A DNA stretch of 64,000 bases from Naegleria gruberi (lineage: Eukaryota). Where the stretch lies: the NCBI GenBank assembly GCA_000004985.1, contig GG738903.1, one strand, 5' to 3'. The translations under genes were made by a program, and so were the position numbers. Positions 3,391 through 62,524 of the stretch are shown piece by piece. The notes beneath the pieces were generated by a model. It ran no database searches and had not been told where the DNA came from. It worked only from the letters and a program-made list of their open reading frames with translations. Position 1 is the first letter of the stretch; every line of letters begins with the position of its first letter.

Positions 3391-4175
3391 TTCTCGAAAG
3401 TTTAATAAATTATATTTGTAAAATTATTGTTGTTGTTGTTGATTCTCTCTTATAAGAGTTTGATAAATAAATAAATATTGAATGATCACGTTTGTTCTTG
3501 ATTATACTATTGTATTATTATTATAATATTCGTTTTTTTTATCTTCGGAGATTTTAAATATGATATTATTATTGTTACTATTATTGTTGTTGTTGTAGTT
3601 GAGCAGCTATAACGGTTGCTGTTATTTGATGATGATAATATTATGTATTCTTCAAGAGTTTCAAAAAGCGAGCAAATTAATGACAACTTTAAAATCTTAC
3701 GAAAAATGGGGAACGTGTAGTGTAGAGATAATTTTTTGAAAATGGATGAGGAACTTCTATGCTTGTTATCTTATTAACAAATGTGAAATGTCAACCAAAT
3801 ATCTTGTAATTATCACTACAATACAATAATTTCCATGTTTGTGCACTAACTTTTGATGCGTTTTCATTCAAATTCATAAAATTTTGCAATGGACAAGTGT
3901 TCGATTCCTTAACTTGCACCAGCTCATTTTCTTTAAGAAAGGCACTAGGTACAGAACCAAGGTCTATTATTTTCTAATGTTTCTTATTGACATCCTAAAA
4001 CAATCCTGCTCGTACGTTTTAATTTCCCTCAACACTTACAAACTGCGTGCGCACCAATTTTTCTTTTCGGTAATTTAAAAACTTTTTCAAATCTCTCAAA
4101 TAATTTCAAAAAAAAACAAAACAAACAACATCTCTCTCATAGCTAATCATCTCTACAAATTTATCAAGAAACAAA

Positions 4176-6308: not shown

Positions 6309-9300
6309 ATGTCGGCATCAGCAGATTATGATTCAAAGAAGAGAAAAATTTTGGAGGCTTCTGATTCAGTTGATCAAATTGTTTCGGATGAAAATGATAG
6401 ACTCATTGATCAAGTTTCTGATGCGCTTCATCGATTGACTCTACAAAAACGAGCTGATTCAATGGTAATGGCATTGGTCGATGATAAAAGACAAGTTTCA
6501 TCATCATCATCTTCCCGTGATGAAAGGCTTGATTCTCTCCAGCAAATGCAACAAGAAAAAGTTGTTGTGTTGAAAGTTGGTGGTAAGTTCTATCAACTTC
6601 ATCTTTATTCGAATTTAATATATTTTGATCATCCATAGGAAAATTCTTTAACACAACAATGAGAACTTTGGTGGGAGAAAGAGGAAGAAAATTAGAAAAT
6701 TTGGATAATGACGAAGAAATGAAGGAAGGTGAAGAAGAAAAACAAGATGAAGACGAAAACGATGAAAAAGAAGAAACAAAAGATGATGATTGTGAATATG
6801 TCACAGCACAACCGAACTTGTTCAAAGTCATGTTTGATTCTGGAATTGGCATTGAGAGAGATGAAGCAAACAAGTCTGCAATTTCATTCCCTGATAGAAA
6901 TCCAGACTATTTCGAATATGTTTTAGAGCACTTGAGACAGGGAGGAAAAGTTAAATCGCTTGGTGTTGAGAAATTGAATGCCAATCAGTTGGAGAACATT
7001 TTGGAAGAGTCCAATTATTTTGCAACTGAAAAGTTATCAGAGTACATTCTATTCTTACTCGAAAAGTATCACAAGTTACATGGGTCGAATTTGGGCAAGT
7101 TTGCTGAAACAGAAGATCAGAATTCAGAATCTAAATCATTAATAGTACCTCAAAAGGTTGAAATTCCAATTGAACAAGTTAGACAAAGACTCCTTCTAGT
7201 TGAAGATTCCATCAATGAATCAAAGAAGGTGGCCAAAGAATTATCACTCAAATTAGTTAGCAAGTACCAGAACTTCATCTTGGGAAATGATTTAGAGACT
7301 GACCTGTCTGTTAAAATTGATGTTTCTGGTCAAATTTTCACAATTCCTTTTGCCATTTTGCAACAGCATGAAACTTTCCTCATTTCCAAGTACATTTTAG
7401 CACCAAATTTTTGTTTGAATGAGAATGGGTGCATCTTTATTGATAGAAGTCCAAAGTTATTCGCCCTTATTCATTCATATATGATTAGTGGCAAATTTAC
7501 TCATTTCCCAAAAAACCTCTCAAGGGAAAAGAAACATCAATTGAAGCAAGAAGCAGAATTTTATGGTGTCATCTCTATTATTAATGATTATCTTGATCCA
7601 TTACGTTACCCAGTTGAAAAGATTGGCCAAGACAATATTGAATTGAAAGAAAAGGAAGACAAATTGAGAGAAATATATGCAAAGGAAAGAGAATCACCAT
7701 TATTGAACGATCCATATCTATTACTATCACCTCTCTTCCAAAATTTAGAAGAAATTAATGATCAAGAAAAGTACAGAATTGATTTTGGAGAATGTCCTAA
7801 ATTATTAGATTTATCTGACAAAACCAGATATTCCAGACAAGTTTCTAAACCTCAACTTTTAACTAATTTGGGCGCTTTCAAATTGAATTGGCATAGATTC
7901 ACGCAAGGAGCACTCAAAGGTCTGGATTGGAACAATGTAATTGCTGCAGGTGAGTTCAATTAATTCTTCGATTTTAATTTATAATATTTAAATTAGGTGG
8001 TGGTATTCTTGCTTGTTGTTTGAAACCTGACACTTCCGAAAATATCAGTACCGTTGGTCTTAATTTACCACGCAATGGTTCTGAAAGAAAAAAGTCTTCC
8101 AAACCAATGATGGATGATAATGAAGAGAATGATGTTTCAGATTTTGGTTATTGGAAAAGATTGAAAAAAGAATCATCAGCAGAGGAAGGTGAGTCATTAA
8201 CACAAACAAAGCTTGATAAGGATAGATATCTTAGGGGGGACACGACTATATACAGGTTTCTTAGTTACACAACAGACGATAAGAGAACAAATTTGAGAAA
8301 TCTTGAGAAAATATATACACCCATCATTTCTAAAACAACAGCTGTTCCTGTGGTGGATGAAAAGAAAGAAGACGCTTTTTTCATTCCAGAGGCAAATATT
8401 CCAAGCTCATTTAAAAATTCAGATATTGATCTCTTTCTGTATGCTCTAAGTGAAGAACAAGCAGAAGAAAAAATCAATCACATTTATCAAACCATTAAGA
8501 AAAATATGAGATCTAGATTAATTACAAAATATTCTGAAAAAACTAATAGTCAAGATTTCTTAAGCGGAGAAATGGTCAGGGCTTATGAGGATGGTGTTAT
8601 CAGAACTGAAGAATGTACGGTTAATGATGATGTTCTGGTTGTTAGAACTAAATTTGCTGTTACATTCTATTGTTACAAACTCAGACCAATTCAAGTTGTT
8701 TTGAGAATTTACAAATCACCTGCTGAAGTTTTGTTAGGTTTTGACATTGATTGTGCTACTATGGGGTATGATGGATATCAAGTTTGGTCAAGTGAAAGAG
8801 CAAGAAGAGCTTTAATGTATCATACTAATCTTGTTGATGTTGATAGACAATCTACAACTTATGAATATAGATTATACAAGTACAGTAAGAGAGGTTTCTC
8901 TGTTTCAATTCCAGGTTATGATACTGCTAAAGTTCAAAATCAATTGTTGCAATATCCACGAAGATATTCATTTAATTCTACTGAGTATTTATTGCATGGC
9001 TTGGCAAGACTTATTGCTTTCGATAACTCTTGTCGCTCTAGATACCCACAACGTGTTTTAGGCGCGTATGACAGAGATAACCAAGCACAGTCAATTGAGG
9101 AAAATTCAGTACTTGTACTTTCTGGTGAGCTAAATGTCAAGTCAGATTATCTTGATCTGAACATCATCAAATCACACAAATACCCTCCAAGTATTATCTT
9201 TGAAACTTTGGAAAGAGCTCGCAAGGTTGTTGCCAAGATTAATTTAGAAAAAGAAGATACCTTTACGCGCTCACTTGATACGTTTGTTTTAGACAGCAGA

Positions 9301-9981
9301 TTGAAAGAAAATACATCTAACATTATAAGAAAGAGAAATCCAGATTGGAAACCACACTTTATTTATACTTTAAATGATATTGATACCATAATTAATAATG
9401 AAATATTTGATTCCAGACTCTCCAAGAAGATTGAGTTTCTTACAGTTGATCCAGGAACTCAAAAAATTGGTTCTTTCCATCCTAAGGATATTAACTTTTA
9501 TAGAGATGCCTATCAACCAGTTCCATCCACTAATTTACCTGTTTTAGGTGATGAATATTCCACAAATACATACATTTGGTACAAGTCAATGACTTCACCT
9601 CCAGAACAAGTAATTAGCAAAACGGACAAAAGATATCAAAAATTACCTGTTAGAACTGCTCCTTTTTATTCACTTACCAATGAAGTAGTATGGTTCGAAG
9701 TGTTGACACCAGAAGAAAGCAACACAATAGAGACTGAATACAGAAAGTACCTTATTTACAAGAGTCCTGAAAGATTTGCACTTTCAGAATGTGAAATAGT
9801 TGATTTTTCATTGAATAGACTTTTCTGTGTGATACTACTCATCCCTTCCAACCAAATACCTTTAAATTATTATTCCGAAAAGAATTTTCTGATTACAATG
9901 GCTATCATGATGATGAGGGTACCAATAAGGTTGATATTCTGGCTTTCAATGCACACTATTAAATATCAACATTTTATTTAA
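6309..9981 (+). CDS. Tandem BTB/POZ (KCTD/T1-type) domain protein, three exons, with a large conserved C-terminal region of unknown function
   Basis: The ORF-track entries 6309-6638, 6659-7963 and 8020-9981 join in frame through two short introns. Intron 1 is about 6583-6638: GTAAGT donor placed right after VLKVGG in the middle of a BTB/T1 motif, CATAG acceptor, and the motif continues as KFFNTTMRTLVGERG. Intron 2 is about 7950-7996: GTGAGT donor and TTAG acceptor, phase 1 at both junctions. The downstream reading frame is open from the acceptor and has no ATG of its own. A first T1 domain carries an acidic insert (SFPDRNPDYFEYVLEHLRQGG). A second T1 domain is DVSGQIFTIPFAILQQHETFL. The C-terminal ~650 residues contain the motif VLLGFDIDCATMGYDG. 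Confidence 0.7.
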
Positions 9982-12087: not shown

Positions 12088-13947
12088 TCAGAGCTTGAAC
12101 AGCTTGGAATTGAGAAAGGCAGTAGCTGACCTTCTTTTTTCATTGAACGATTGTGTTAGGGATTGACGAAGTGAGAGTCTACGATTGGCTCGTTGCCTAT
12201 CAGAAGCAACATCAATATTAGCAACGGAGTCACCTCTTCCAAAGAGAGCTCCACTAGCTTCTGGTGTAACAATCGTTTGTTCTCCATTCTTATCCGTAAA
12301 TATAATATTCGAAAGATTCACACTACTCCTCTTTTGATTCTTGATATAATCTGAAGATCCCTGTAGATCTGTCCCACAAATTACTGAAGTCAATGTCATT
12401 GAAGCTCTCTTATTATTCAGAAAACCAGAAGAGGAAGCTGACAATTTTGCAGATCCTCTCGGAATCACCACATCAATATTTTGTAAATGTTCAAAATTTT
12501 CATAAATTGCATTCAGTGACTTTCGTTTTCTATCTTGTTCTTCCTCCTCAATTTCATCCCAATATTTAGTTGGTGGTTCTTGATTCAAATCATTTTCCTC
12601 ATTCTGTGGTGTTTGTGACTCAAATTTACGAATCTCCTCCCGCAATGAATCAATATCTCCTCCCTTAATATCACTCACACTAGTTCTGCTCTTTCGTTTC
12701 GAATTGTTGTTTTGATTTGGAGGAGGTGGTGGTGAATTATTCTCAGAATCTTGTGTTGGACTTTTTGGTGAAATAAACCATGGCAATGATCGTGTCGATC
12801 TGTGAGTGGCACCTGTCACTGTAGAAGCATCACTGTTGACTTCTGTAGATACTGGAATGGCTGTTGGGAGAGGTGAATTCTTAGGTGTGGAATGAGCTGA
12901 TAAAGCACCACCAGATGGTGAGTTAACATTCGAAACTTGTTTCAATTTGAGTGGTGGAATGTTCCTAGATGATGAATTGTTAATATTTGGTGAATTATTT
13001 ACAAGGGTATCGATCAATAATGGTGAAGAATCATTAGAATCAGGAGGATTCAATTCTTTAGAGCTCTGAACTGCCAAATTGTTTCGTCTAGTTTCCACAA
13101 AATCATCACTTATTAAATGTTTCAAATGTGAAATGGATGCATCGACAGAATCTGATAAACCAATAGACGAATCCTTGACATATCGAGGTGTAATTAAGGG
13201 CTGTGAAAAATCAATCTTTTCCTCTTCCAAATATTTAGGTATCGAAGGTTGAATATTCGAAACTGAACTTGCACTTCTTTTAGTTTCCTTTTCATTATTC
13301 GAATGATTAATAATCGAATTTTTCTTATTCTTATAATTGGTAATTGCTTGAAATGCAGAAGGTGATGCCTTTCTTTCTTTTTTCACATTATTCGAAAGTC
13401 CATCAACATCAATTGCTGGACTAGTCGCCGAAATGACATCCATTGTTATTCCACTAATATATTCATCAAATATTGAAGATCTAGGACCTGTCAGAGATGA
13501 CGAATGACTGTTAATATCCAAAGATGAAGGTTTCTCGAAAATATTCGAATCAATATTCGAATGTTGTAAATGTTGAGGTGGAGTATTTAATAGAAACCAA
13601 AACTTTTCAGTTGCTGGAGAATCCATTTTAGGTGTTGGTGTTCCAATCTTTAAATTTGTGGGTAAACTCTTTCGTTTTGATGAAGAAGAAGAATTATTCG
13701 AATCTGTACGAAAGGTTTCTTTTTGTTGATTAAATTGAAGTTTATCCAGAGAGAGTGATGGTGTGGTTTCTGGGCTCTTATTTCCTTGTTGTTGTTCCGA
13801 AAGTTGTGTTTCGTTTCCGTTAGACGAATCTTCTTTCATTGAATGCCTTTTATTCGAACCATGTTTATTTCCACCTCCTCCAACATTTTCTCCAATAAAA
13901 CTATTTGCTCTCCTATGAGAATGTTTATTTCCCATTATTTCTGTCAC
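12088..13947 (-). CDS. Ser/Asn/Pro-rich low-complexity protein, unknown function
   Basis: 619-codon ORF that is mostly low complexity. The sequence MTEIMGNKHSHRR contains MGNKHS, an N-myristoylation-type context if translation starts at the second Met. No domain recognised. Confidence 0.5.
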   Translation of the reverse strand: MTEIMGNKHSHRRANSFIGENVGGGGNKHGSNKRHSMKEDSSNGNETQLSEQQQGNKSPETTPSLSLDKLQFNQQKETFRTDSNNSSSSSKRKSLPTNLKIGTPTPKMDSPATEKFWFLLNTPPQHLQHSNIDSNIFEKPSSLDINSHSSSLTGPRSSIFDEYISGITMDVISATSPAIDVDGLSNNVKKERKASPSAFQAITNYKNKKNSIINHSNNEKETKRSASSVSNIQPSIPKYLEEEKIDFSQPLITPRYVKDSSIGLSDSVDASISHLKHLISDDFVETRRNNLAVQSSKELNPPDSNDSSPLLIDTLVNNSPNINNSSSRNIPPLKLKQVSNVNSPSGGALSAHSTPKNSPLPTAIPVSTEVNSDASTVTGATHRSTRSLPWFISPKSPTQDSENNSPPPPPNQNNNSKRKSRTSVSDIKGGDIDSLREEIRKFESQTPQNEENDLNQEPPTKYWDEIEEEEQDRKRKSLNAIYENFEHLQNIDVVIPRGSAKLSASSSGFLNNKRASMTLTSVICGTDLQGSSDYIKNQKRSSVNLSNIIFTDKNGEQTIVTPEASGALFGRGDSVANIDVASDRQRANRRLSLRQSLTQSFNEKRRSATAFLNSKLFKL

Positions 13948-14591: not shown

Positions 14592-15800
14592 TTATAATTG
14601 AGAGATGGCTGATTCTTGAGGTTTTGATAAGGAAAATATGCTAATTTTGTCCCAAAGTGGAATTTCAGTGAAAATTTCTGATTGGTCAACTAGGATTGGT
14701 ATTCCACTAGTGTTTGATTTGGTTTCACTATTCACATATTCTCTAAAGTCTTCCTTTCTAATAATCTGATCTGAATTCAACGCAGATTGAGAAATGTCAT
14801 CTCGTTTCTGAATAATTTCGACACTTGTCACAGATTGTGAGCTAGCGCTGTTAAATTCAATCAATACAAAGTCCAAAGGACCAAATGAAAATGTTACAAT
14901 AATGCAAAATAAGAGGAGGGATATTTTGTGGATGAATAAACAAATAGGATAAAGTGGAATATAGTAAGCGAAAGCAAATCCTCCAAAACTCATTGAAATT
15001 AAGTTGAGAAGAGCCATGTAGAGTTGACCAAATGTTAGTAGGAGCATTTTACGACATGATTTTCTTCTCTGATCGGTTACTGGAAACTTTTGATTGAGAA
15101 TTAGCTTTCTAATTAGTAAAACAACAATTACCATATTTAGTATGGGAAAGAAGATGGTTGCCAAACAAATGATTGAAATGTAAAATCCGAAAATAACCCT
15201 TGAAATGTTGGACATGATGGTAAAACCTTCAGAATCTATCCATTTCCTTTCGGTGTCATAATATTTGAAAAGACTATAGGTTATTACTAATGGTATTACA
15301 ATTACAATAATCAAGTTGACTATTACAATAAGTGTAATACTTGTTATTTTGATAAAATCTCTCAGCCTCTGATTACCCTTATTCATTCTCATCCACTCAT
15401 GTGATTTGTTAAAATACAATCCATACAAAATTTTTGTAACAACACCAAGGCAATTGGTGCACATTACAATTGACAAGAAAAAAAGCGACTGTTCCAATGA
15501 CGCGCTAATTACTATAAGAATTTCTCCAAAATCTACAAGAATTGAAGTACCAGTCACTATCCCCACTATCTGGAACACTTCTTCCAAAGCAAAAACCAAT
15601 AAAACCATTGAATATAGCAATTTCTTATTGTAAACCATTTTTTTGTAATTCATAATGAAAATGACAAACATAAATACAGAGCAACTGGAAAATATGATGA
15701 ATCCGATACCATTCAATGGTATTCCAATGCTTGATGTCACTATATCTTCCATAGGAATCGTTGAATTGCTGCTCAGAGTTGCAAAAACGTCATTTGCCAT
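14592..15800 (-). CDS. Lineage-specific 7TM receptor-like protein, array member 1
   Basis: 402 codons. Seven predicted hydrophobic helices with the N-terminus outside (N-glyco sequon NST). Family motifs are shared with 17028-18128, 18277-19394 and 21810-23207: WMR after TM3, TDQ[RK]RK.CRK in loop 3, FGQ in TM6, and SFGPLD after TM7. Confidence 0.75.
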   Translation of the reverse strand: MANDVFATLSSNSTIPMEDIVTSSIGIPLNGIGFIIFSSCSVFMFVIFIMNYKKMVYNKKLLYSMVLLVFALEEVFQIVGIVTGTSILVDFGEILIVISASLEQSLFFLSIVMCTNCLGVVTKILYGLYFNKSHEWMRMNKGNQRLRDFIKITSITLIVIVNLIIVIVIPLVITYSLFKYYDTERKWIDSEGFTIMSNISRVIFGFYISIICLATIFFPILNMVIVVLLIRKLILNQKFPVTDQRRKSCRKMLLLTFGQLYMALLNLISMSFGGFAFAYYIPLYPICLFIHKISLLLFCIIVTFSFGPLDFVLIEFNSASSQSVTSVEIIQKRDDISQSALNSDQIIRKEDFREYVNSETKSNTSGIPILVDQSEIFTEIPLWDKISIFSLSKPQESAISQL

Positions 15801-16312
15801 TTTTTTTTTGATATGACTTATCTCTGTAAATGCAGATACTCGTTCTGACCTGCCATGCAGACATTTGCTTTCTGGAATGGTGTTGTCATTTCTAATTTAA
15901 TAAAAGAGATACATCACCATTAAAAGAGGTACCATATGTCCTCAAAACAGTGCACATCAAATGGTTGAGTGAAGATTCTCAATAAAGACTTGACAGCCAG
16001 AGGTTTTGAATTCTCAGTTGACCAAAACATTCAATCAAAGAGATATGAAACACGAAAAAATGTCCGATGATGATGATAAGGATGATGATAAGGAGAATCG
16101 GGAGGGATGTAGTTTGTGTGTTAGTAGCAAAAAGAGGAGCAATACAAACACAGAGTCACCACCACCCACTGAATCAATGGAAAGGTTTACTCAAAGGTGA
16201 AACTAACTCTTGGAAGGTGTTTTGTAAAGAATCTGATGAGAATAGTATGGATTTTTTAATTTGTTATCTTGACTTTTTAACTTTGTAACTCCTTAATAGC
16301 AGACATGGTCTA

Positions 16313-16863
16313 GTGTTATTGGAAGGTCAACAAGTTTCGACTATTTTCGATTCAGCTGAGGTCATACGGCTGATTTGTGATTTATTAGTGCAACTTGCAA
16401 AATTAAAGAACCAGCGAATCATTCACATCGATTTAAAGCCAAATAATATAGTGAAATATGGTGGCCATTATTTTATAACTGATTACGGATTGTCAATTTG
16501 TTATCATTCATTGGATGGAGAGGTTTGCAGGGATGAGACTAATGAAATTATCAAATCAACAGCAGGCTCTCTTTTTTATGAATCACCTGAGAAGGAGGAG
16601 GGTTTATATCTCCGAAAAGTGATATATTCTCATTGGGATGCACTATTGATGAGATAATCAACTATTCCAAAGATAATAATTCTACTAATGGAAATCAATT
16701 TAATAACAATGTAATAGAACTTATTTCGCATATGAAAGACCCATCGATTAAGACTAGATGGTCAATTGAACAATGTGTTACACTCCTGAAATCTCAATAC
16801 AAAACAGAGCTAAAGACAAGTGTTGATCTTTTCTTGCAAAAGGAAAAGTATGTTAAACGATAA
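16313..16863 (+). pseudogene. Protein kinase catalytic-domain fragment (C-lobe only), frameshifted
   Basis: Subdomains VIb to XI are present: IIHIDLKPNNIV, FITDYGLS (DFG-like), GSLFYESPE (APE), then in another frame SDIFSLGCTIDEII (subdomain IX) and KDPSIKTRWSIEQCV. A one-nucleotide frame change lies between APE and subdomain IX (about 16605-16615). No Gly-loop, VAIK or Glu motifs are found in the 300 bp upstream; the reading frames 16006-16290 are unrelated low-complexity sequence. Confidence 0.55.
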
Positions 16864-17027: not shown

Positions 17028-18128
17028 TTACACTTTATTTGGGTCAATTGTTTCGTTTGTTTCGTCTTTTTCCACCACAATTTCTGAAACTACCTTAGTA
17101 GAAACATTTGCTTTCACATCCCTTTCCTCAATCTCAATCTTATTCATTGATTTCCTTTTTACAATATTTGCCAATTGATGTCCAAATTCAGAAACATTAT
17201 CCAGTGGTCCAAAAGAAAAGTTTACAACAATACAAAAAATGAAAATTGATGATCTGTGAATTAAAATTGAAATTACACTGAGTGGCATGACAGCACTAGC
17301 AACTCCGGCAGTAATGACACCCACTGCATTCATCATAGACATTATAACTTGACCAAAGTTCAGAATTAGCAAGTTTCGGCAGACTTTCCTTTTTTGGTCG
17401 GTTATGACACTTTGATTTTGACCAAGTAGCTTTCTAATCAACAAGACGGTGATTGTAAAGTTGAGAATTGACAAATAAAAGAATGCTGCAGATATTACAC
17501 TTCCAAGAGTTGGATGAAATATTTTTGTAAACTGTTGTATAGTAAGAACTTGACTCAAGCTCAGAATTTTCCTTCCCGGATCAATAAAAGTCAATAATGA
17601 TGAGATAAACGCATAGGGCATGCTCAAAATCAACAGCAAATTGAAAAATGCAACAATTCCAATCGTTGAAATAAGCACCACTTTCTTACCAATCGAATGA
17701 AGTTTCGAATTTCTCATCCAAGTTTGATTTTCATTAAAATACACTGCATAAAGTACTTTCGTTATAACAGCCTGACAATCCAAACATAATGTCAAGCTCA
17801 ATAAATATCCAGCAAACTCAAATCCAAGAAAAGTTCCGGTCAACCCAAGTGGACCAACAAGCAGAGCTGAAGTATACCCAATTAAACCACATAATTGATA
17901 AATCTGCTGATTTAAACAGGTAAATATCAAGAGTAGGTACATTAATCTCTTGTTTTTCACCATTTTCTTCCATTTATAGATTAGTAGAATCGTCATGGAA
18001 AGTAGAAGAAACAAGAAGAATAAAGCTCCGAGAGAATTGAGAGTAATGATGGAAATAAAGGTGCCAAGATAATCTGATTTGGCTGTAGGTGAGGCAGATG
18101 TTGTAGAGTTGGTCAATGTCGAGTTCAT
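17028..18128 (-). CDS. Lineage-specific 7TM receptor-like protein, array member 2
   Basis: 366 codons, 7 TM. Same family motifs: WMRNSK, TDQKRKVCRNLLILNFGQ, NFSFGPLDNVSEFGHQLANIVKRK. Confidence 0.75.
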   Translation of the reverse strand: MNSTLTNSTTSASPTAKSDYLGTFISIITLNSLGALFFLFLLLSMTILLIYKWKKMVKNKRLMYLLLIFTCLNQQIYQLCGLIGYTSALLVGPLGLTGTFLGFEFAGYLLSLTLCLDCQAVITKVLYAVYFNENQTWMRNSKLHSIGKKVVLISTIGIVAFFNLLLILSMPYAFISSLLTFIDPGRKILSLSQVLTIQQFTKIFHPTLGSVISAAFFYLSILNFTITVLLIRKLLGQNQSVITDQKRKVCRNLLILNFGQVIMSMMNAVGVITAGVASAVMPLSVISILIHRSSIFIFCIVVNFSFGPLDNVSEFGHQLANIVKRKSMNKIEIEERDVKANVSTKVVSEIVVEKDETNETIDPNKV

Positions 18129-18276: not shown

Positions 18277-19394
18277 TTAAACTTTATTTTCTGATTCCTT
18301 ATTCGAAAGCTCTGCCTCCTTATCCTTAATATGAACATCAGTCTTAATAGAAAGAGATCTCCTCTTCACAACATTTGCCAACTGCTCACCCAATTCTGAA
18401 ACATCATCCAATGGTCCAAAAGAAAAGTTTACAAAAATACAAAAAAGGAAAATCGAAATTCTATGAGAAGCCAATCCAATCACAAATAAAACAAGAGGAA
18501 TTACAGTAGCCACTCCCATTATTATAATTCCAATGATATTGAGCAGTGCCATTAACACTTGTCCAATGCTTAAAATTATTAACTTTCTGCAACATTTCCT
18601 TTTTTGGTCAGTTATGATACTTTGACAAAGATAGAGTTTTCTGATTAGTGAAATTGAGAGAGAAAGATTAAGCACGCAAAAATATAGGAAGGAAAGTGAA
18701 ATGAGAGCTCCCAAAACTGGATGGAAAATTCCAGTAAATTGGCGAAGTGAGCTACTTTGAGATGGAGTGAGAATATCAACTTTGACAATTATGGAAAATA
18801 TAAAGGCGAAGGGGATGCTTAGTACTAATTGTAAATTAAAGATTGTTACTATGAAATACTTGTAAACTTTACAAAATTTCTAAATATGGAATTTTCTTTT
18901 GAATTTCTCATCCATGTTTGTGATTCATTAAAATATACTCCAAAAAGAACTTTAGTAATAATCGCCTGACAATTCAATAATAATGTCAAGCTCAATAAAT
19001 ATCCAGCAAACTCAAATCCAAGAAAAGTTCCATTCAACTGAGGCGGACCTTTCAAGAATGAAGTTAAATATCCAACCAATCCACAAGTTTGATAAACAAA
19101 CTGATTCAAACATGTAATTATCAACGCTATCGACATGATTCTCTTATTTTTAACCATTCCTTTCCATTGAACTATCAAGAGAATGGTCATGAAAAGAACA
19201 AGAATGAAAAAGAGAAAACTTCCCACAGAATTCAAAGTAATGAGAGATATTACTTGGGCATTGTTAGTGGATGAAACTGTAGAGTTTTCTGTTGTGTTGG
19301 TAATGTTTGATATAATCGTCGAGTTGAATATCATCTTGTTTTTTTTTATATTTGAGTTTCGTATCTCTTTTGGATTCAATTGACCTATATACAA
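18277..19394 (-). pseudogene. 7TM receptor-like paralogue (array member 3) split by a 1-nt frameshift
   Basis: The N-terminal ORF 18849-19394 carries TM1-3 plus the WMRNSK motif. The C-terminal ORF 18277-18714 carries TDQKRKCCRK, FGQ and SFGPLD. The TM4 region between them reads through in a second frame (KYFIVTIFNLQLVLSIPFAF). One missing base near 18849-18852 (TTTCA-TAG versus expected TTTCAATAG) restores a continuous protein collinear with the paralogues. This is either a pseudogene or a draft-sequence error. Confidence 0.6.
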
Positions 19395-19539
19395 ATATCT
19401 CTAATTGGTTGAATATCAACAACAAGCGTGATCTTTCTTTACATGCAATGATGGAGTTGTTCTGTAATTCTAAATATCTTGTTCGGTCAATTTGTCAACC
19501 TGTCATATTAAATTATCTCTTTAAATCATAAACAATTTA

Positions 19540-19690
19540 ATCTTTTCAAATAGTTTTACATTCGGTATTAAAGTTTTCAATTCTTTCAATTCAACCTTAC
19601 TTTCGGCCACAATCTCAATCGAAGCAAATGTTTTAATTGTCTTGGCCAATTCAATGCCCAACTCTGAAACATTATCCAGAGGTCAATTGG
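19540..19690 (-). pseudogene. Relic 3-prime fragment of a further 7TM-family paralogue
   Basis: The minus strand encodes PLDNVSELGIELAKTIKTFASIEIVAESKVELKEL..., homologous to the post-TM7 tail (SFGPLDNVSEFGHQLANIVKRK) of the neighbours. The DNA is similar to 17161-17230 and 18361-18430. An in-frame TGA directly precedes it and a frame change lies upstream. It abuts the stop codon of the GT61 gene. Confidence 0.5.
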
Positions 19691-19707
19691 GTGTGATGCC
19701 AATAGAT

Positions 19708-21285
19708 TTACTTGGCTCTTGAATTTCTCAAAGTTGTTAAGAAAATACCAAATGTCTGAAGAAATGATTCTAGTTTGACAGTCAGATTATCTCCATTAAT
19801 AGCTTTCATATCCATGTTTGTCCATAGTGTATATTCATTCCCTTTCCATCTAGAATACTGTTCAAATGATCTCATACTTCGTGTCTTGTAAGTTTTCCAA
19901 ATTTCCAATAGTCCTGAAGTTCCATCTGGAAGAAACAAACTATTTGTCAATCCAAGATCATGATAACCAATAAGAAAATCAGCTTGATGAACTCGTTTCA
20001 CTTGCTCTACAAATGAAAACTTATTGAGATCAATTCGTTCTAAAGTAAAGGTATAACCATACTCTGGATGCTTTTTCAAATTGATTAAAACTTCATCTTC
20101 GTTTGTGATTTTTCCCGAGCTCACAAAAAGTCCTCTAATCATTTCATCTGATGATGAGAAAGAAGGTCTTCTCTTTTCTATTCCTAGAGTGCTTAGAATT
20201 CTATCTGAAAAGGCAGTTACGAGTCTAACTTTGGATTTGCATTGGCTTGGATCAAACTCTGAAAAATCTAACAAATTGGATTTGAGTTGAGTGGCCACTC
20301 CAGCATGTTGAAAGATGGCTCTTTCAAATCGAACTGTTTTTTCCTTGAAATAGGAAGCTTTTCTAGCAGGTCTCTTCAAGGAGAAGGTAGAATTCCACAA
20401 AAAGTCATATGGAGATTCGTAATGTTCATCCAACAATACAATTTGAACATTCTTACTATCCAATTTGAACATTTCAATCATTTGAAAAGTTGCAAAGAAA
20501 TCTGACAAGGCATGAAACAAATTGGCGTGATCATCTTGTTCTCTAGTAACGAAAATAGTCACTCCATCAATGTATTCAACCTTATCCTTCTTTTCCTTAA
20601 AATTTTCTTCCTTAAATGTTTTGAAACTTGAGAAAATTTCCTTTCCAAAGTGTTTTGAAAATTGAGAAAGATCCAAATTCACTGGATTTCTCTTACACTT
20701 GCCAAGAAGAGCTCCTGCCAAGTATGTGTAATAGGTTTTCCTTTTACAATTATAACCAGGTCTGTACTTTAAACATGGCACTCGTTTCAATTTTGAAAAA
20801 TCCATCACCAAATTACTTGATTCACAAACAGTGTGTGGAAATGTATCCGAATCAACATGTTTGTTATTGTTCTTGTAACATGTGAGAGTGGCTTGATTAG
20901 TTTCCATCTCCTTCTTCTTTTCCAAATCAATAAGACCAGAACTTGGAATGACATAATCGTCCTTTTCACACATTTCAATAGCTTGTTGCTTCCATGTTTG
21001 CAAAAGACCACATCCATACTCTCTTTCACACAATTCCTTCTGCTTTTCTTCTTCAGATAGGTTAACACTTGATGGTAGATTGTTCATTGAGATTGGTTTA
21101 GTACATATGAGTGGTGGAATCCTAGAAGGACGAAACTTTTCATCATCTGTTGAAACATCTTTCAAAGATGATGTTTCCTTAGAGTTTGTCGTTTCAATAG
21201 TTACTGAAAATTGCTCTCTCCTAGTTCCCTTCCCAACAGCAGTATTCACCAAACCAATAGTACGAGCATTCTCATGGATATTCAT
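19708..21285 (-). CDS. Glycosyltransferase family 61 (DUF563) EOGT/POMGNT2-like protein
   Basis: 525 codons. Conserved blocks HANLFHALSDFFATF and the C-terminal HQADFLIGYHDLGLTNSLFLPDGTSGLLEIW match the GT61 signature of O-GlcNAc and beta-1,4-GlcNAc/Xyl transferases. No N-terminal signal or TM in this ORF; an upstream exon is not excluded. Confidence 0.6.
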   Translation of the reverse strand: MNIHENARTIGLVNTAVGKGTRREQFSVTIETTNSKETSSLKDVSTDDEKFRPSRIPPLICTKPISMNNLPSSVNLSEEEKQKELCEREYGCGLLQTWKQQAIEMCEKDDYVIPSSGLIDLEKKKEMETNQATLTCYKNNNKHVDSDTFPHTVCESSNLVMDFSKLKRVPCLKYRPGYNCKRKTYYTYLAGALLGKCKRNPVNLDLSQFSKHFGKEIFSSFKTFKEENFKEKKDKVEYIDGVTIFVTREQDDHANLFHALSDFFATFQMIEMFKLDSKNVQIVLLDEHYESPYDFLWNSTFSLKRPARKASYFKEKTVRFERAIFQHAGVATQLKSNLLDFSEFDPSQCKSKVRLVTAFSDRILSTLGIEKRRPSFSSSDEMIRGLFVSSGKITNEDEVLINLKKHPEYGYTFTLERIDLNKFSFVEQVKRVHQADFLIGYHDLGLTNSLFLPDGTSGLLEIWKTYKTRSMRSFEQYSRWKGNEYTLWTNMDMKAINGDNLTVKLESFLQTFGIFLTTLRNSRAK

Positions 21286-21809
21286 GGATGGAAGTTCTTC
21301 ATGTTGTTCTTCTTGAAGAGTAGTAGTAGTAAGTAAATCCCCTCTACTCTACTCCATATATTATCCTCCGCACTAGAATCCACGAAAATATAATAAACAC
21401 CAAGCATATAACAAGATAAACCTTAATCAATCGTTTGATCTTGACTAAATTAAACAAACTCTTATTCATGATTGCTGCTAATTACACTAATATAACAAGT
21501 TACTCCTTCTTAATGTACAATGTGTGAGATTTAGCAATGAAATGCTCGCTTAGATGTTGTTGATTTTTTTTTCATTGAGTAAAATAATCAACGCTCTCTC
21601 ACGCTTAATTTGGCAACTGGTTGAATGACCCTAAAAGAATCTTTTTACCGACCCTTAGTTACTTGCTGAGAACATTGTTCGTGGAGCTGAGATTGGCGAG
21701 TATTAAGGCGCAACAACATTCATGTGGAAAGCTGATTGTGAGATTGCCAGTCAATGAGTTTTAAAGAGTGATGGTCCTGTTCTGGGTGTTGTTGATTGTT
21801 GTTGGGTTA

Positions 21810-23207
21810 TTAATCATTGAGAGGAATATCAACAAAGATATCTTCATATTGTATATTATCGATTTTCGTCGTAGTAGTTTGATGATGATCAGTAGCAGTA
21901 CTCATAGTGGTATTACTGTCATTACTTTTCTTACTGTCATTACAATTGGTTGGAGCACGCAACTGATCAGTTGCAATCGCCTCCTGAGGCCCAAAGGAGC
22001 TAGTAATGTTGAAGGGTGAGTAAATGGGCTGCTTGTTTGTTGCTGTATACTTGATCATCATCATGGAAGATATTTCGCTGGCTTTTCTAAATGCCTTTGA
22101 ATCAATATTGAAAGAGTTTGAAGTTTTTTGATTGGTGAGTTGAATTTCACTGGTTTGACATGAGGATTGAGTATTATCCCCATGTGGCTTCTTCTTACCT
22201 TCCAATTTTAATTCATAATGAAAGTAATCCATAGGTCCAAAACTGAAACTCACACAAATGGCAAATAACAGAAACACAAATCTATGAATGACACCAGTCA
22301 ATATGAACAAGTATGGATACCATATACCAATAGCTCCCAAAATAATTGAGATTGAATTAATAATTGCCATGTAGAATTGACCAAATGTTAAGAGTACCAA
22401 CTTTTTACATGCATTTCTGCGAGGGATTGGGACTGGCCTGTTTTGGAGAAGGTATCTTGAGAGTAGAAGAACCAAAGTTAAATTTAACACTCCTGTAATG
22501 ATGGCACATCCAGAGTTTACAAGACCAACAATGGCCACAGAAATAATTGACCAAATGCCAAGAATACTTCCAACTCGTGTATTTCCTCCATCCATATAAT
22601 ATACCATTGAACAGATCAGAGTGAATGGAACGAGAATAATGAATGCAATAGTCCAAATTAATGTCATTCCAATTGTGTAATATTTTGTAAATATTCTAAA
22701 CTTTTCATTGAATGAATAGCTTTCTGCTCCCTTCCTCATCCATGAATGAGATTGATGAAAGTAAATTCCATACAATACTTTTGAAACCATTGCTTGAAAA
22801 TAGGTACACATTACAACAGTTGACACGAGTCCACAATAATAAATAACGAAAAATAATTGACTCAAAAATTCCTGAATATGAGTCAGTGCTCCAACATCGT
22901 GAGCTATTCCAACTCCCTGTGAGAGAATTTGCAAGATGGCTGTAAATATTAAGGAAATGTAAAAGAATCTCTTGAAGGGAATCATTTCCTTCCATCGTTT
23001 GATGAGGAGAGTGGTCATTATAATGGTCAGTATCAGATAACTCAGTATTCCAATTCCATGAGTAGTAACAGAAATGTAGTATCGTTCTATTGCAGAAGTA
23101 AAAGTTGATGATGAAATATTGTATTGATGGAAAACTATTCCTGGATTCAATGAGCCATGCTGATGCTGGTCAACAATAGAAACAGTCATCTCACGATTAT
23201 TATTCAT
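21810..23207 (-). CDS. Lineage-specific 7TM receptor-like protein, array member 4, with long C-terminal tail
   Basis: 465 codons, 7 TM. Motifs WMRKGAESYSF, RRNACKKLVLLTFGQFYMAI, SFSFGPMDYF. Confidence 0.75.
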   Translation of the reverse strand: MNNNREMTVSIVDQHQHGSLNPGIVFHQYNISSSTFTSAIERYYISVTTHGIGILSYLILTIIMTTLLIKRWKEMIPFKRFFYISLIFTAILQILSQGVGIAHDVGALTHIQEFLSQLFFVIYYCGLVSTVVMCTYFQAMVSKVLYGIYFHQSHSWMRKGAESYSFNEKFRIFTKYYTIGMTLIWTIAFIILVPFTLICSMVYYMDGGNTRVGSILGIWSIISVAIVGLVNSGCAIITGVLNLTLVLLLSRYLLQNRPVPIPRRNACKKLVLLTFGQFYMAIINSISIILGAIGIWYPYLFILTGVIHRFVFLLFAICVSFSFGPMDYFHYELKLEGKKKPHGDNTQSSCQTSEIQLTNQKTSNSFNIDSKAFRKASEISSMMMIKYTATNKQPIYSPFNITSSFGPQEAIATDQLRAPTNCNDSKKSNDSNTTMSTATDHHQTTTTKIDNIQYEDIFVDIPLND

Positions 23208-23349
23208 AGATATTTGTCAATGAGGTATTTGTTTTGAATAGTATTATCTCTCCGCTCTCAATGATATGCAACAAATCTTACAAGACAGGCATTGATGTGT
23301 AGTAACTTAATCTTACAATAGAAATTCGAAAGGGTGACCTTACCTTTAT

Positions 23350-25206
23350 TTAATCACTGAAAGAACCTTCTTCATCAGAAATGGTAGCTTCTTGATTTTC
23401 TTCATTTTGAGATGTTGGTGATTGAGCATCTGAGTTATCCTCACGAATGATATCGTTCCATGTATGTTCCTCCTCTTCTTCACTTGAAGAGTCAACACTG
23501 CTCAATTCCATTCCATCATCAACATAATCCTCATCATTACGATCATTCTCCTCTGTCATTTCCTCATCCGAATCCATTCCCATTTCTCGCATTAATATTC
23601 TTCTCTGAATGTCAGCCAAAAATTGATTAGCTGTTTCAATTCTATTTCTCAATGAAGTCAGTTTCTCAACGAGTCCTGACATTTTCTCTTCATCAGTGTA
23701 GGTCATTTCAGAATCATATAAATGATGGGCGAAACTTTCTGAATCATCGAAATATCTACTAATATCATCAAGTGATTTGGAAATATCATATCGAAAAGGT
23801 TCACTTCCAAAATTACATTTTGCTTTCATATTCTTCCAAAATCCAAGTCCAAAACGCATATCTTCTTTGAGAGTATGGAGAATAACTGGAGAGGTTAAAA
23901 AGGTGCCATTCAATGTAAAGAATACAGCCTTGTGATGTGAAGAAAATCCACATCCCAACACATCTCCAACAATAATTTCCTTTCCATCAGTGTTAACTTT
24001 GAATTTCGAGCTTCCTTCCTCAAGGAAAAATCCTGCATCATCAGTGTGAAAACCTGTTGATAAATCATCCCACCCAACTTGTCTATTTCCCAAATATCTG
24101 TTATGCATAATACCAATAGAGTTTCTACCATCCTTTACCTTCTTCTTGGTGGCCATCATCTTCTTCCAGAATGAATTTCCAGAACTAGATGAAGTACTAG
24201 ACAAGGGAGTAATCGGAGTTACTGGTTCAGGTTTCTCCAAGACAAAAGTTTCAACTTCGAAATAATAGATAGGAACTAAATACTCGAGAAGATAATTTGA
24301 TGAAAGTTGTTTTTCTATTGTTGTTGTTGTTGAAGAGGATGATGATACCAATGTTGATATTGATGTTGTTAGTGGAGCAACTTGTATTGGTTCTACCAAT
24401 GTTGTTGTTGATGAAGAAGCTTGAGGTTGAGCATCCACTTCAGTTGAAGAAATCTTCTTCTTTGGTGGCTTGTAAGGTAGATTAGGAATACGTTTGTCTG
24501 TTCTCAAGTTAATATCATAGGAAAAGGCACGAAACGTATCAGAATTTCCCTTACTATAGATTAACAAGTTTGTATCTTTGGAATCCCTAGATATGAGATC
24601 TCTCAAATGAAATTCTCTATCGGTATCCTCGGAAGGAGTGATAAATGTTGTTGGGAAGTAATCGGGAATTATGTACAATAATCTTTTCAAAATATATACA
24701 TCATCAGATAATAGCAATGACAATGATGAATCATCAGTAGGGAATGGTGATGACTTTTCATGAGGTCCATCATCCTCTTCTTCTTCACTGCTCATTATTT
24801 GGCTCTGTTTTTCACTCTTCAATTTACACAAATATTTACAATTATTTACATAGGATGACAGAACGGAAGAATGTAATTTGCTTTCCTTCAGGACAATATC
24901 ATACCAAATTGATGTCTTGTTGCTCATGTTTTTCCATTTGTTACAAACAAGCGGAATGGTCATGATTGCTTCTCTATATTCTACAAAGGGTAAAACGCAA
25001 TGCTCAATTACATCATCCGTAATTAATCCAAAACTTCCATCATATTTGATGAGAGAAGATTCATCATTGTTATTATTATTATTATCATTTTGTTGTTGGA
25101 GAGTGGTTAATGATGCTACTCCGGTCGTGATGTTGTTAATTTGTTGGTCATCATGAAATGATGAAAGCTTAACGGACGGTTTGTCCCATTGTAGCTCATC
25201 TTCCAT
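23350..25206 (-). CDS. F-box / SPRY (B30.2) domain protein with acidic C-terminus
   Basis: AAAAATGG start at 25206 (MEDELQW). F-box-like LITDDVIEHCVLPFVEYREAIMTIPLVCNKWKNM. SPRY signature GWDDLSTGFHTDDAGFF...GDVLGCGFSSHHKAVFFTLNGTFL. Asp/Glu-rich tail. Confidence 0.7.
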   Translation of the reverse strand: MEDELQWDKPSVKLSSFHDDQQINNITTGVASLTTLQQQNDNNNNNNDESSLIKYDGSFGLITDDVIEHCVLPFVEYREAIMTIPLVCNKWKNMSNKTSIWYDIVLKESKLHSSVLSSYVNNCKYLCKLKSEKQSQIMSSEEEEDDGPHEKSSPFPTDDSSLSLLLSDDVYILKRLLYIIPDYFPTTFITPSEDTDREFHLRDLISRDSKDTNLLIYSKGNSDTFRAFSYDINLRTDKRIPNLPYKPPKKKISSTEVDAQPQASSSTTTLVEPIQVAPLTTSISTLVSSSSSTTTTIEKQLSSNYLLEYLVPIYYFEVETFVLEKPEPVTPITPLSSTSSSSGNSFWKKMMATKKKVKDGRNSIGIMHNRYLGNRQVGWDDLSTGFHTDDAGFFLEEGSSKFKVNTDGKEIIVGDVLGCGFSSHHKAVFFTLNGTFLTSPVILHTLKEDMRFGLGFWKNMKAKCNFGSEPFRYDISKSLDDISRYFDDSESFAHHLYDSEMTYTDEEKMSGLVEKLTSLRNRIETANQFLADIQRRILMREMGMDSDEEMTEENDRNDEDYVDDGMELSSVDSSSEEEEEHTWNDIIREDNSDAQSPTSQNEENQEATISDEEGSFSD

Positions 25207-26102
25207 TTTTTTACTTTTTGATTTTTTATTAAAAATTAATTTTATTTTCAATTTAATTTGAGATTTCGTTTTTTGTTTTGTGATCATCCTAAACTTTGCT
25301 AATTATTGAACAATTTCAATAACAAATCCTTTCAAAAAATAGTGAATTATCATAATAGACTTAGCATTGTATACATTAGTAACTTTAGAAAACTGGTCTT
25401 TTCATCAAAATTTACGAAAATCTCTTAAATTGTCCATCAATCCAAAAAATCTCTATTTCCCATCAACAGTCAGCAAAAAATTAAATCCATCAAAAAAAAA
25501 TGCTTGGAAAGCTAACGAAGAAGGTAACGCCGGTGAAGTTTGCCTTCAATTTCTCTATCGACTACTTGTTCGTTGAGACTATGGGTAACAATACAGTGAT
25601 TCTTGATGATAATTTGTATTCGGTAGGTTTCGAATATAACAGTTTCTAATTGCTTGACTTGTCCGAATCGAAATTCCTTGTTAACAACTGTTGTTATTAT
25701 TGGATTCATATCTCTTTCCATCATCATCATCACCCATTAAAATATGATTGACATATGACTTTCGAATAGATTCAATGGAAAAGAGGTAGAAAACGAAAGG
25801 GTGAAACAGAATTTGTTCATCCACCACCAGGTTCCAAACACACAACCAAAATTAAAGTCATTTACAATCGTGCCTTTAGATTTGGTGGAACACTTTACAA
25901 AAATGAAAAGAAGAATGAATGGCAAAAGAAAGATTTAGTAATTAGTATTGAAGAAGTTGTTGCTGGAAAGGATATTGAACTTGCCAAACAGTATAATCAA
26001 TATTTGCAACAATTGCAACATGGTATGTTCTCAGATTCATTGTTAAGATTGTTAATATTTTAATGTTCCTTTCAATATTTAAATGTTTACAAAAAAAAAT
26101 TA

Positions 26103-61500: not shown

Positions 61501-62524
61501 TGTTAGTAATCCAACTGATGCTGAAAAGGCAGCCATTCAACAAGCTTCTACTGCACTTGCCAATTCATTCTTATTACAACAAGCTCAAAGTGCTGCTGTT
61601 ACATCACTTTCTTCATCAGCAGCTGAAAGTAGTATCTCCTTCTCAAGCTCTGTTGCTGGTTCAGTTTCAAAGGGTCTCTTTGCTGATTCAACAACTTCTC
61701 AAGTTATTTCAAGCTTGTCAAATACTACATCTTCTGTAACATCAAGTTCTTCTGTTAGTCTTTCTGATGATGCTATTGCAAGTACTTTGGCAACTGCTAA
61801 TAATTTCCTTGCCTACATCAAGTCCAAATTATCAAAGAGATCTTTCAGTTCTGCTGATCTTACTAATTTGAATGCTGTCTTTGCAAGTGTTGCTTCTATC
61901 AAGACTAAGAATGTTGTTCCTGATGCACCAGCTGCTACTGTAACTGCCAATGGTGTCACAACTTCTTCTCGTAAGGTCAATCTTGCTTCTTTGAATTCTA
62001 TGGCTCAAAATACTACAGGAAAGGATCAAATCAAGTTCAAGAATAATATTGCCGCATTGACTGCCTTTGCTAATGCCAAATCTGTTAGTGTTACAGTCAA
62101 GACAACTAGTACATCTGTTACTAATGCTGTCACCAATGCCATGACATTCTCATTTGCTGATGGAACTAGTTCTGCAACTATTTCAGTTTCTAGCTCTTCT
62201 CCAATTGCTGATTTGGTATTTGGTACAACCAAGAGTTTGACAAGATCAATCACTGCAACCCAAGTCATCTGTAAATCTGTCGATTCAAGTGGTGCTGCTT
62301 CAGATGCTTCAGGATGTACTGTTGTAATTGGAAGTGATGGTACTGCCACAGCAACTGTTTCAAGTACTGGTACTTATTTGTTGACTCAACAAACAATTAC
62401 TGCTACATCGAGTGGTAAAACTGTTACTCCTAAACCTTCAAAGCTCAGTAGTGCTCCAGCAAGTACTTTCTCAATGATGTTGACTCTTTTCATTGCTGCT
62501 ATTACATTGATTATTTTACAATAG
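55584..62524 (+). CDS. Giant membrane-anchored (probably GPI) EGF-repeat / double Frizzled-type CRD / REJ-module protein, spanning an assembly gap
   Basis: Signal peptide, then tenascin-type EGF repeats. Two Fz-CRD-like 10-Cys modules (CQSLMQASTAPFCASVGV...YKRYACYSQFPICSAN...PVCNGAC...LCGSLPSKYC and CVNVMSSSSTPFCASAGV...IKRYACYTTFKSC...WCKSAC). NNGT sequon repeats. REJ-like block LTFSWTC...SPPTVGVFEVYPTSGVALSDSFSLKCGNGWSDPQTPLSFQFFFYD. Ser/Thr/Ala-rich stalk. Terminal hydrophobic FSMMLTLFIAAITLIILQ. The ORF-track entries 55584-60323 and 60431-62524 are the same gene across the 50-N gap; the frame offset is unknown. Confidence 0.7.
57471..57680 (+). repeat. Tandem NNGT/NNNGT coding microrepeat (about 15 consecutive N-glycosylation sequons)
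   Basis: SSNNGTNNGTINNNGTINNNGTVNNNGTINNNGTTNNNGTANNGTVNNNGTINNNNGTSNNGTSNNNGT, encoded by aat/ggt/act iterations. Confidence 0.85.
60186..60235. other. Assembly gap (50 N)
   Basis: Run of n characters inside the coding region of the 55584-62524 gene. Confidence 1.

Follow-up and report, generated by a model that had tools for sequence, protein, structure and literature searches.

The 64,000-nucleotide stretch of Naegleria gruberi DNA analysed here (contig GG738903.1 of assembly GCA_000004985.1; hereafter the window) contains a gene of glycosyltransferase family 61 (GT61) within a tandem array of genes for seven-transmembrane (7TM), GPCR-like proteins, and 21 nt past its stop codon begins the truncated 3' end of a further, lost member of that array. 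On balance, we favour an account in which the GT61 gene joined an N. gruberi-specific 7TM array at a break inside a gene of the 17/18 type (that of the array members 7TM-17 and 7TM-18), the stub of that gene stayed behind as a fossil and the enzyme itself was probably crippled or repurposed. What is new is the loss of an arginine pair from a GT61 protein that is still under selection, together with a corrected gene model that bears a signal anchor. The GT61 gene has likely also borrowed the tail of the dead receptor gene as its 3' flank.

The window has a G+C content of about 33-35%, and its spacers are short. The product of the main GT61 open reading frame (ORF), 19708-21285(-), is identical to N. 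gruberi XP_002671775.1/EFC39031.1 (NAEGRDRAFT_73281), a protein to which UniRef gives the automatic name EOGT. A preliminary description of this DNA, made from its letters, had placed such a gene inside the receptor array, and it does lie there, with 7TM paralogues on both sides: 21810-23207(-) on one, 18277-19334(-) and 17028-18128(-) on the other. The features around the junction, in minus-strand order, are as follows.

21810-23207, minus strand: 7TM-21, a divergent member with about 28% identity to 7TM-17 and 7TM-18, directly upstream of the GT61 gene
19708-21469, minus strand: GT61 gene including its anchor, following 7TM-21
21344-21469, minus strand: upstream ORF of the GT61 gene encoding the type II signal anchor, MNKSLFNLVKIKRLIKVYLVICLVFIIFSWILVRRIIYGVE, then a stop
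21339-21355, minus strand: polymorphic stretch, GGAGTAGAGTAGAGGGG in the reference and GGAGGAGGAGTAGGGG, 1 nt shorter, in a second strain
19708-21285, minus strand: main GT61 ORF, 525 codons and the TAA at 19708-19710, containing the motif HANLFHA
19687-19707, minus strand: 21-nt spacer from the GT61 stop to the first 7TM-homologous base; rearrangement junction
19521-19686, minus strand: relic of 7TM-X, a lost 17/18-subclade 7TM gene; it ends at the TAA at 19521-19523
18277-19334, minus strand: 7TM-18, 58% identical to 7TM-17
17028-18128, minus strand: 7TM-17, intact, 366 amino acids, the closest relative of the relic

Homology of the receptor relic

Along the minus strand, the TAA stop of the GT61 gene (19710-19708) and the 21-nt spacer are followed by TTGACCTCTGGATAATGTTTCAGAGTTGGGCATTGAATTGGCCAAG, which reads PLDNVSELGIELAK... 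and has its counterparts in GPLDNVSEFGHQLAN of 7TM-17 and GPLDDVSELGEQLAN of 7TM-18. The relic encodes (G)PLDNVSELGIELAKTIK..., corresponding to helix 8 and the C-terminal tail, and continues down to its own TAA. It has no ATG, no seventh transmembrane helix (TM7) and no splice acceptor, and a TGA stands immediately before its frame. In the predicted structure of 7TM-17, TM7 ends at residue 305 and a further helix spans residues 310-339; thus, the relic is exactly the helix-8-plus-tail portion of such a protein. The edge of the homology is abrupt; it falls within FSFG|PLD, the most conserved motif of the family, where TM7 ends. Over the 42 nt upstream of this edge the relic strand matches gene 17 at 11/42 positions, compared with 39/42 between genes 17 and 18; over the 45 nt downstream the matches rise to 33/45 (gene 17) and 30/45 (gene 18), with 36/45 between the two genes.

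The preliminary description had proposed that a 7TM 3' end begins within a few bases of the GT61 stop, and the coordinates it gave for the alignment (19540-19690 with 17161-17250 and 18361-18430) are essentially right. In Smith-Waterman comparisons the relic scored 28 against the 7TM-17 tail and 21 against the 7TM-18 tail, compared with means of 10.9 and 9.9 (standard deviations 2.0 and 1.6; maxima 22 and 18) for 1224 window tiles on both strands. None of 2000 shuffles attained the observed scores, and the relic is the best-matching stretch of the window against both paralogue tails. When all 2398 open segments in the six frames of the window were compared with a hidden Markov model (HMM) built from three 17/18-type tails, the relic came out with an E value of 1.3e-4, whereas the next non-family match had an E value of 11.

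A chance or low-complexity resemblance in AT-rich DNA would agree with the short length that is clearly alignable (about 45 nt, or 15 codons), with a tblastn search from one paralogue that gave just E = 0.03 and with the scores of 21 and 18 reached by an unrelated coding stretch at 8129-8180; set against the background values above, the shared strand and frame register, a tail length similar to that of the paralogues and a boundary placed exactly in the most conserved motif of the family, such a coincidence is barely credible. The stretch at 8129-8180(+) ('NDVSDFGYWKRLKKESS', within ORF 8020-9981) is among the best non-family matches to the tails, in a gapped alignment, and is most likely a chance match within an unrelated coding region. 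No other 7TM relic was found in the window by tblastn or the family HMM.

Decay of the relic in two strains

A second strain is represented by a metagenome contig (L002; ENA ERZ929261) that is 97-99% identical to the window over 19392-25083 and keeps the order of SPRY-like gene, 7TM-21, GT61 and relic. Between the two strains the first 45 nt of the relic are unchanged and the remaining 120 nt carry six substitutions; the second strain has lost 1 nt, so that its frame stops after 34 codons, and has gained a 42-nt insertion. The 21-nt spacer differs by a 5-nt indel. Divergence amounts to 3.6% in the relic, compared with 5.1% at synonymous sites (pS) of GT61, 2.7% at synonymous sites of 7TM-21 and 6.2% in the next spacer. 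Since the relic occurs in both strains with frame-breaking indels and near-neutral divergence, the stub predates the strain split and is not maintained as a coding sequence. With homology to only part of its paralogues, no start codon or 5' region and a frame that is not conserved, it is a truncated (fragment) pseudogene.

It is very improbable that the stub still codes for protein, either as a 3' exon spliced onto GT61, which would give the enzyme a receptor-like C-terminal tail, or as a small independent ORF. The relic frame is open for 53 codons in the window, four GT..AG combinations could link the GT61 frame to it and its first 45 nt are the same in both strains. However, the candidate introns have weak donors and would remove a GT61 C-terminus that is conserved in Willaertia, the obvious GTAAAT..TTTCAG pair yields K-V-G-H-stop, a TGA abuts the relic frame, which has no ATG, the second strain ends it early by deletion and carries the 42-nt insertion, and zero differences in 45 nt are not significant at a neutral divergence of about 4-5%. 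Simple read-through from GT61 into the relic was rejected, as an in-frame stop follows after 13 codons.

Elsewhere in the same metagenome (ERZ929261), contig L013 carries at 3134-3771 a 7TM-17-type copy in decay, immediately downstream of a cytochrome P450 gene. This copy shows 81-86% nucleotide identity, has lost its 5' end and contains an internal deletion of about 360 nt and several frame changes. The presence of such a copy beside the P450 gene in the second strain shows that turnover of the 7TM genes is continuing.

Birth-and-death turnover leaves truncated pseudogenes in tandem receptor arrays, for example in chemoreceptor and olfactory-receptor clusters. The N. gruberi array resembles these in its apparent lineage-specific tandem expansion, in the adjacency of intact, frameshifted and fragmentary copies and in the neutral drift of the fragment; it differs in that the fragment is only the last ~15% of a gene and that a mere 21 nt part it from the stop codon of a same-strand gene unrelated to it. 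The locus is ordinary gene turnover in a fast-changing, lineage-specific receptor array beside an already annotated GT61 gene. As such, it offers a clean and datable example of receptor-array turnover, in which the relic probably now serves an unrelated gene as its 3' flank.

Origin of the junction

The remaining features of the array and its borders enter the comparison with other species.

23350-25287, minus strand: SPRY-like gene, first in minus-strand order
about 16006-16863, plus strand: kinase-like fragment between 7TM-17 and 7TM-14
14592-15800, minus strand: 7TM-14, the array member adjoining the conserved downstream neighbour 12088-13947
12088-13947, minus strand: Ser-rich gene, a synteny anchor with N. 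lovaniensis and N. fowleri

The orthologue of 12088-13947 has two tandem 7TM genes immediately upstream in N. lovaniensis and one in N. fowleri; neither array contains GT61. Other GT61 matches came only from Willaertia magna and one read-assembly protein, with the N. fowleri and N. lovaniensis proteomes in the searched collection, and JGI metagenomes yielded only distant relatives (22-38% identity), which were used for a motif check. The Willaertia neighbourhood shares only GT61 with the window and has neither a 7TM gene nor a relic. The presence of GT61 in Willaertia too makes the gene older than the N. gruberi array that holds it. The C-terminus of the N. gruberi protein aligns with the final residues of its presumed Willaertia orthologue; thus, the GT61 coding sequence is complete and the break lies in its 3' flank. 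In a neighbour-joining tree the N. gruberi 7TM copies (14, 17, 18, 21 and two dispersed paralogues) stand apart from those of N. lovaniensis and N. fowleri, and from these sequences they appear to be a lineage-specific expansion.

We propose the following course of events. An EOGT-like GT61 gene, apparently single-copy and vertically inherited, would have come to sit in the N. gruberi-specific tandem 7TM expansion. The 166 nt of relic past the GT61 stop are the fossil 3' end (helix 8 and cytoplasmic tail) of 7TM-X, and they mark a rearrangement junction whose two edges lie 21 nt past that stop and within FSFG|PLD. Most likely, 7TM-X broke and a segment bearing GT61 became attached to the array there; the 5' portion of 7TM-X (about 0.9 kb) would have disappeared with that event or shortly afterwards. 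The stub is now non-coding and drifts neutrally, and, to judge from its position, it probably supplies the 3' untranslated part of the GT61 transcript and its termination region. The present GT61 product is a type II membrane protein of GT-B fold that lacks both triad arginines and is still selected, and in the reference strain a frameshift additionally uncouples its signal anchor.

One joining event explains together why GT61 stands between array members, why its stop is 21 nt from the relic and why the FSFG|PLD boundary is sharp. The 340-nt spacer between 7TM-21 and the GT61 anchor ATG has no 7TM homology, and neither tblastn nor the family HMM found a 5' remnant of a broken 7TM gene in it; with about 0.9 kb gone, this points to replacement and not to plain insertion. 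The suggestion in the preliminary description that GT61 was inserted into, or displaced, a receptor gene is the more parsimonious reading: in the comparison with sister species, which the same description had proposed, no GT61 stands in the syntenic arrays, and the N. gruberi 7TM copies group in a clade of their own. A later deletion would leave the same picture.

Such a later deletion is possible, though less probable than the joining. GT61 would already have stood beside a complete 7TM-X, and a single deletion of about 1.1-1.3 kb would have taken out the 5' 85% of 7TM-X together with the spacer between the two genes and the 3' flank of GT61, with no movement of GT61 tied to the scar. The end state would be the same, including the missing 5' remnant upstream of GT61; no target-site duplications, terminal or flanking repeats, mobile-element signatures or structured RNAs were found at the junctions, and the L013 copy shows that genes of this family do undergo internal deletion. 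This history needs two events, however, namely the entry of GT61 between array members and then the deletion, and the arrays of the sister species are without GT61.

Several points weigh against the joining account. Both the direction and the number of events are deduced from an end state that a deletion in an array already containing GT61 would equally produce, and an outgroup that retains an unbroken 7TM-X did not turn up. That N. fowleri and N. lovaniensis lack GT61 is drawn from searches limited by a word index. The neighbour-joining tree carries no support values, and the Naegleria species are very divergent. The proposed role of the stub in the GT61 transcript is purely positional.

A different history, in which 7TM genes invaded the spacer of a GT61-kinase pair conserved with Willaertia, was rejected, as the Willaertia kinase and the kinase-like fragment of the window gave no tblastx or tblastn match. 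The fragment itself matches only positions 93-167 of Pfam Pkinase (E = 2.9e-7, slightly under the cut-off), and its subdomain IX carries on in a different frame; it is a probable pseudogene, or else a mis-assembled or intron-containing gene.

Family identity of the GT61 protein

The 525-residue GT61 product matches Pfam PF04577 (Glyco_transf_61, DUF563) with an E value of 6.5e-15 and 56 bits against a gathering cut-off of 27, and the second-strain allele and the Willaertia protein likewise exceed the family cut-off. Its top sequence match of solved structure is EOGT (9wjk_A; E = 2e-11 with the single sequence, 1.5e-21 with a four-sequence profile), whereas the match to POMGNT2 is marginal (E from about 0.1 to 1e-3, single sequence to profile). 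These searches confirm the GT61 assignment and the EOGT-like label of the preliminary description. The AlphaFold model, built from three sequences, is poor (pLDDT 54.6), and with this low-confidence model the 16 best Foldseek matches in the PDB are all POMGNT2 (E = 2.6e-10 to 8e-8, TM-scores about 0.4). No paper joining Naegleria with EOGT or GT61 was found in a literature search.

Mouse EOGT (PDB 9WJK; PMC13123520) shares with the N. gruberi protein the GT61 Pfam domain, equivalents of N245, H248, Q412 and H432 and, ahead of the catalytic domain, a Cys-rich region. The two align distantly and over the C-terminal ~300 residues only (query 193-490). EOGT has a cleaved signal peptide and an HDEL/KDEL signal, whereas N. 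gruberi GT61 has a type II anchor, which only the second strain carries intact, and a C-terminus (...LRNSRAK) that carries no KDEL/HDEL-type endoplasmic reticulum signal. EOGT transfers N-acetylglucosamine (GlcNAc) from UDP-GlcNAc to Ser/Thr of EGF repeats, within C5-x-x-G-x-[ST]-G-x-x-C6. POMGNT2 (PDB 7E9J/7E9K/6XI2/8KB7) has in common with the model a GT-B fold and the same UDP-pocket logic, all 16 of the Foldseek matches with E <= 1e-7 being to it; it differs in its fibronectin-III domain, its action on O-mannose and its intact arginine pair.

The closest GT61 homologue found, and the presumed orthologue, is Willaertia magna ABK040_000119 (P0002), with 41% identity over 84% of the length. 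It has an N-terminal signal anchor, a single exon and the same C-terminal end; it differs in its full N-R-R triad and HGAGLTH motif and in its unrelated neighbourhood. A 34-nt direct tandem repeat, 82% identical, occurs at 20599-20666(-) in the GT61 ORF, in the region encoding ...FGKEIFSSFKTFKEENFKE..., and this protein region varies between N. gruberi and Willaertia.

Loss of the phosphate-binding arginines

In mouse EOGT an Asn-Arg-Arg triad (N245, R372 and R377) binds the phosphates of uridine diphosphate (UDP), and R372K, R372L and R377Q each abolish activity (PMC13123520). The two arginines are kept in all GT61 subtypes surveyed and are required for the activity of EOGT and POMGNT2, and the N-R-R triad has been proposed as a hallmark of active GT61 enzymes (PMC13123520).

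Part of this pocket is preserved in N. gruberi. The motif HANLFHA aligns with GINMYHH of EOGT, with the Asn (N245) and the adjacent invariant His (H248) present, and the Gln and His equivalents (EOGT Q412 and H432) are also retained. The arginine pair is missing: where relatives show F(I/V)SR...14 aa...(G/A)RQI.NEDE, the N. gruberi protein has FVSSGKITNEDE. This region reads LFVS--SGKITNEDE, compared with LFISRKPYNLNGIQHSFMGRQISNEDE in Willaertia, IFVSRRPHNVD-VEHSFMARQIDNEDE in P0030 and SR(R/K)PY...HSF(M/V)(A/G)R in the distant metagenome relatives L006 and L007. The first arginine (EOGT R372, POMGNT2 R294) is absent through a 14-residue deletion ('LFVS--SGK'), the loop so deleted being SRKPYNLNGIQHSFMGR in Willaertia. 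The second (EOGT R377, POMGNT2 R298) is Lys ('SGKITNEDE'; '(G/A)RQI.NEDE' in relatives and 'YRKILNQDE' in EOGT). In addition, HDLGLT stands where relatives have HGAGLT. All these changes are common to both N. gruberi alleles. Willaertia, P0030, L006 and L007 keep both arginines.

The GT61 alleles of the two strains differ by 16.5 synonymous and 11.5 non-synonymous changes, and the resulting ratio of non-synonymous to synonymous divergence (pN/pS 0.18; binomial P = 4e-6) places the ORF under purifying selection. Because both phosphate-binding arginines have been lost though selection persists, the protein is probably a crippled or repurposed enzyme rather than a working EGF O-GlcNAc transferase, and its most apt description is that of an EOGT-like GT61 member lacking the activity hallmark proposed for the family. 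This view is tempered by the mapping of the arginines, which uses a sequence alignment only (the model has a pLDDT of 54.6), and by the Lys at the second position or another basic residue, which might substitute for them. In Heterolobosea, the EOGT-like Willaertia protein with its full N-R-R widens the triad beyond the groups surveyed so far, and N. gruberi GT61, as a natural loss-of-arginine variant, could test whether the triad is indispensable.

The signal anchor and frameshifts in the reference

The anchor segment, 21344-21469(-), encodes MNKSLFNLVKIKRLIKVYLVICLVFIIFSWILV... with a hydropathy peak of 2.7, and the Willaertia protein has an equivalent N-terminal anchor. In the second strain the anchor and the catalytic ORF form one continuous ORF of 586 codons (P0003). 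The reference has one extra base in the polymorphic stretch at 21339-21355, which creates a stop and a frameshift and leaves the anchor out of frame with the catalytic ORF; hence, the annotated 525-residue model begins at an internal Met and lacks the anchor. The preliminary description had proposed an upstream signal-anchor exon. The anchor segment exists, but a separate exon joined by an intron was rejected, as the ORF of the second strain is single and continuous.

Either the frameshift is genuine and particular to this strain, or it arose in the assembly. Less likely, it is removed by an 82-nt intron: among all GT..AG pairs enumerated, only the candidate at 21271-21352, which is phase-compatible, retains the whole anchor. 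A comparable lesion occurs in 7TM-18, 2.5 kb from the GT61 anchor frameshift, where a 1-nt deletion between 18854 and 18853 in the reference (TTTCC to TTTC) shifts the frame; a second-strain metagenome contig (L014, 98% identical) carries the extra C with the frame open. Both reference-specific frameshifts could be assembly errors instead of mutations.

EGF-repeat proteins in the window

The preliminary description had drawn attention to EOGT-type enzymes next to a region rich in EGF-repeat proteins. Two such genes are present in the window.

39750-47882, minus strand: EGF-repeat giant, 2710 amino acids, teneurin-type EGF (E = 1e-132), C-terminal RGS domain
55584-60323, plus strand: EGF-repeat ORF, 1579 amino acids

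The product of 39750-47882 has a signal peptide, ~2000 residues of EGF repeats, seven hydrophobic segments (residues 2118-2467) and an RGS domain (residues 2495-2577), a predicted giant EGF-7TM-RGS architecture that is receptor-like. The animal EOGT acceptor consensus is C-x-x-G-x-[ST]-G-x-x-C; nine matches to it occur in this product and five in that of 55584-60323, as candidate acceptors. The two EGF giants lie 18 and 34 kb from GT61 with unrelated genes between, and EGF-repeat proteins could just be common in the N. gruberi genome. Given the missing arginines, proximity to EGF genes is no evidence of a functional link, and a link between GT61 and the EGF proteins has no support beyond co-location. 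What stands of the earlier hint is the presence of the EGF giants; the arginine loss, the lack of a KDEL-type signal and the out-of-frame anchor of the reference all run counter to it.

It is unlikely, then, that GT61 is a working EOGT-type enzyme acting on nearby EGF-repeat receptors, its arginines compensated and its frameshift artefactual or removed with an intron. Such an enzyme would account for the purifying selection, the retained Asn, His, Gln and His of the UDP pocket and the intact anchor of the second strain; the phase-compatible intron at 21271-21352 and the acceptor motifs in the two EGF giants would also suit it. Yet EOGT loses its activity with R372K, R372L or R377Q and all surveyed GT61 subtypes have the pair (PMC13123520), the closest relatives all retain the pair and the loop is deleted in N. 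gruberi only, HGAGLT is altered to HDLGLT, and the EGF genes are far off beyond unrelated genes.

More speculative still is a conserved 'dead' glycosyltransferase that would act as a non-catalytic binder or chaperone, for example of EGF-repeat ectodomains, and would be expressed through 3'-end signals from the fossil receptor tail; its possible clients would include the EGF-7TM-RGS giant encoded 18 kb away.

Two neighbouring ORFs were noted in the same region. Right after 55584-60323, ORF 60431-62524(+) has a REJ domain (E = 3e-47) and a C-terminal hydrophobic segment; the two ORFs probably belong to a single polycystin/REJ-like receptor gene that an intron or a frame change divides. At 51636-53213(+), a 525-residue ORF with an RGS domain (E = 5.5e-7) and no hydrophobic segments is the second RGS gene within 10 kb of the EGF-7TM-RGS giant.

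The 7TM gene family

The array genes of the window have no Pfam match. The AlphaFold model of 7TM-17 (pLDDT 76.6, pTM 0.73) shows helices at residues 14-51, 58-89, 94-130, 142-182, 191-236, 244-277 and 282-305, the extra helix at 310-339 lying beyond these seven transmembrane helices. Hydropathy scans of the family gave 6-12 peaks, some overlapping, a rough compatibility only with seven helices. All 50 of the Foldseek PDB matches listed for 7TM-17 are entries for G-protein-coupled receptors (GPCRs), at weak values (E >= 1.4e-3, TM-scores 0.27-0.45), and one distant N. fowleri member bears the automatic name 'GPCR family 1 profile'. As a description based on these models, '7TM, GPCR-like' is a fair label.

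No pair of array spacers could be aligned as a shared tandem-duplication unit (all z < 2). A word-index protein search with one 7TM gene gave no matches, whereas an exhaustive search of 1.84 billion representative proteins, made with a profile of the three intact window copies, found 23 relatives and only these. Those with names are all 'hypothetical' proteins from N. gruberi, N. lovaniensis, N. fowleri or Willaertia magna, and the others are metagenome or read-assembly sequences. The full-length ORFs 14592-15800, 17028-18128 and 21810-23207 are absent from the protein collection, and the reference models NAEGRDRAFT_73279 (207 residues), 73280 (104 residues) and 73282 (402 residues) are truncated. 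The present analysis thus corrects four reference gene models, namely these three and the GT61 model without its signal anchor.

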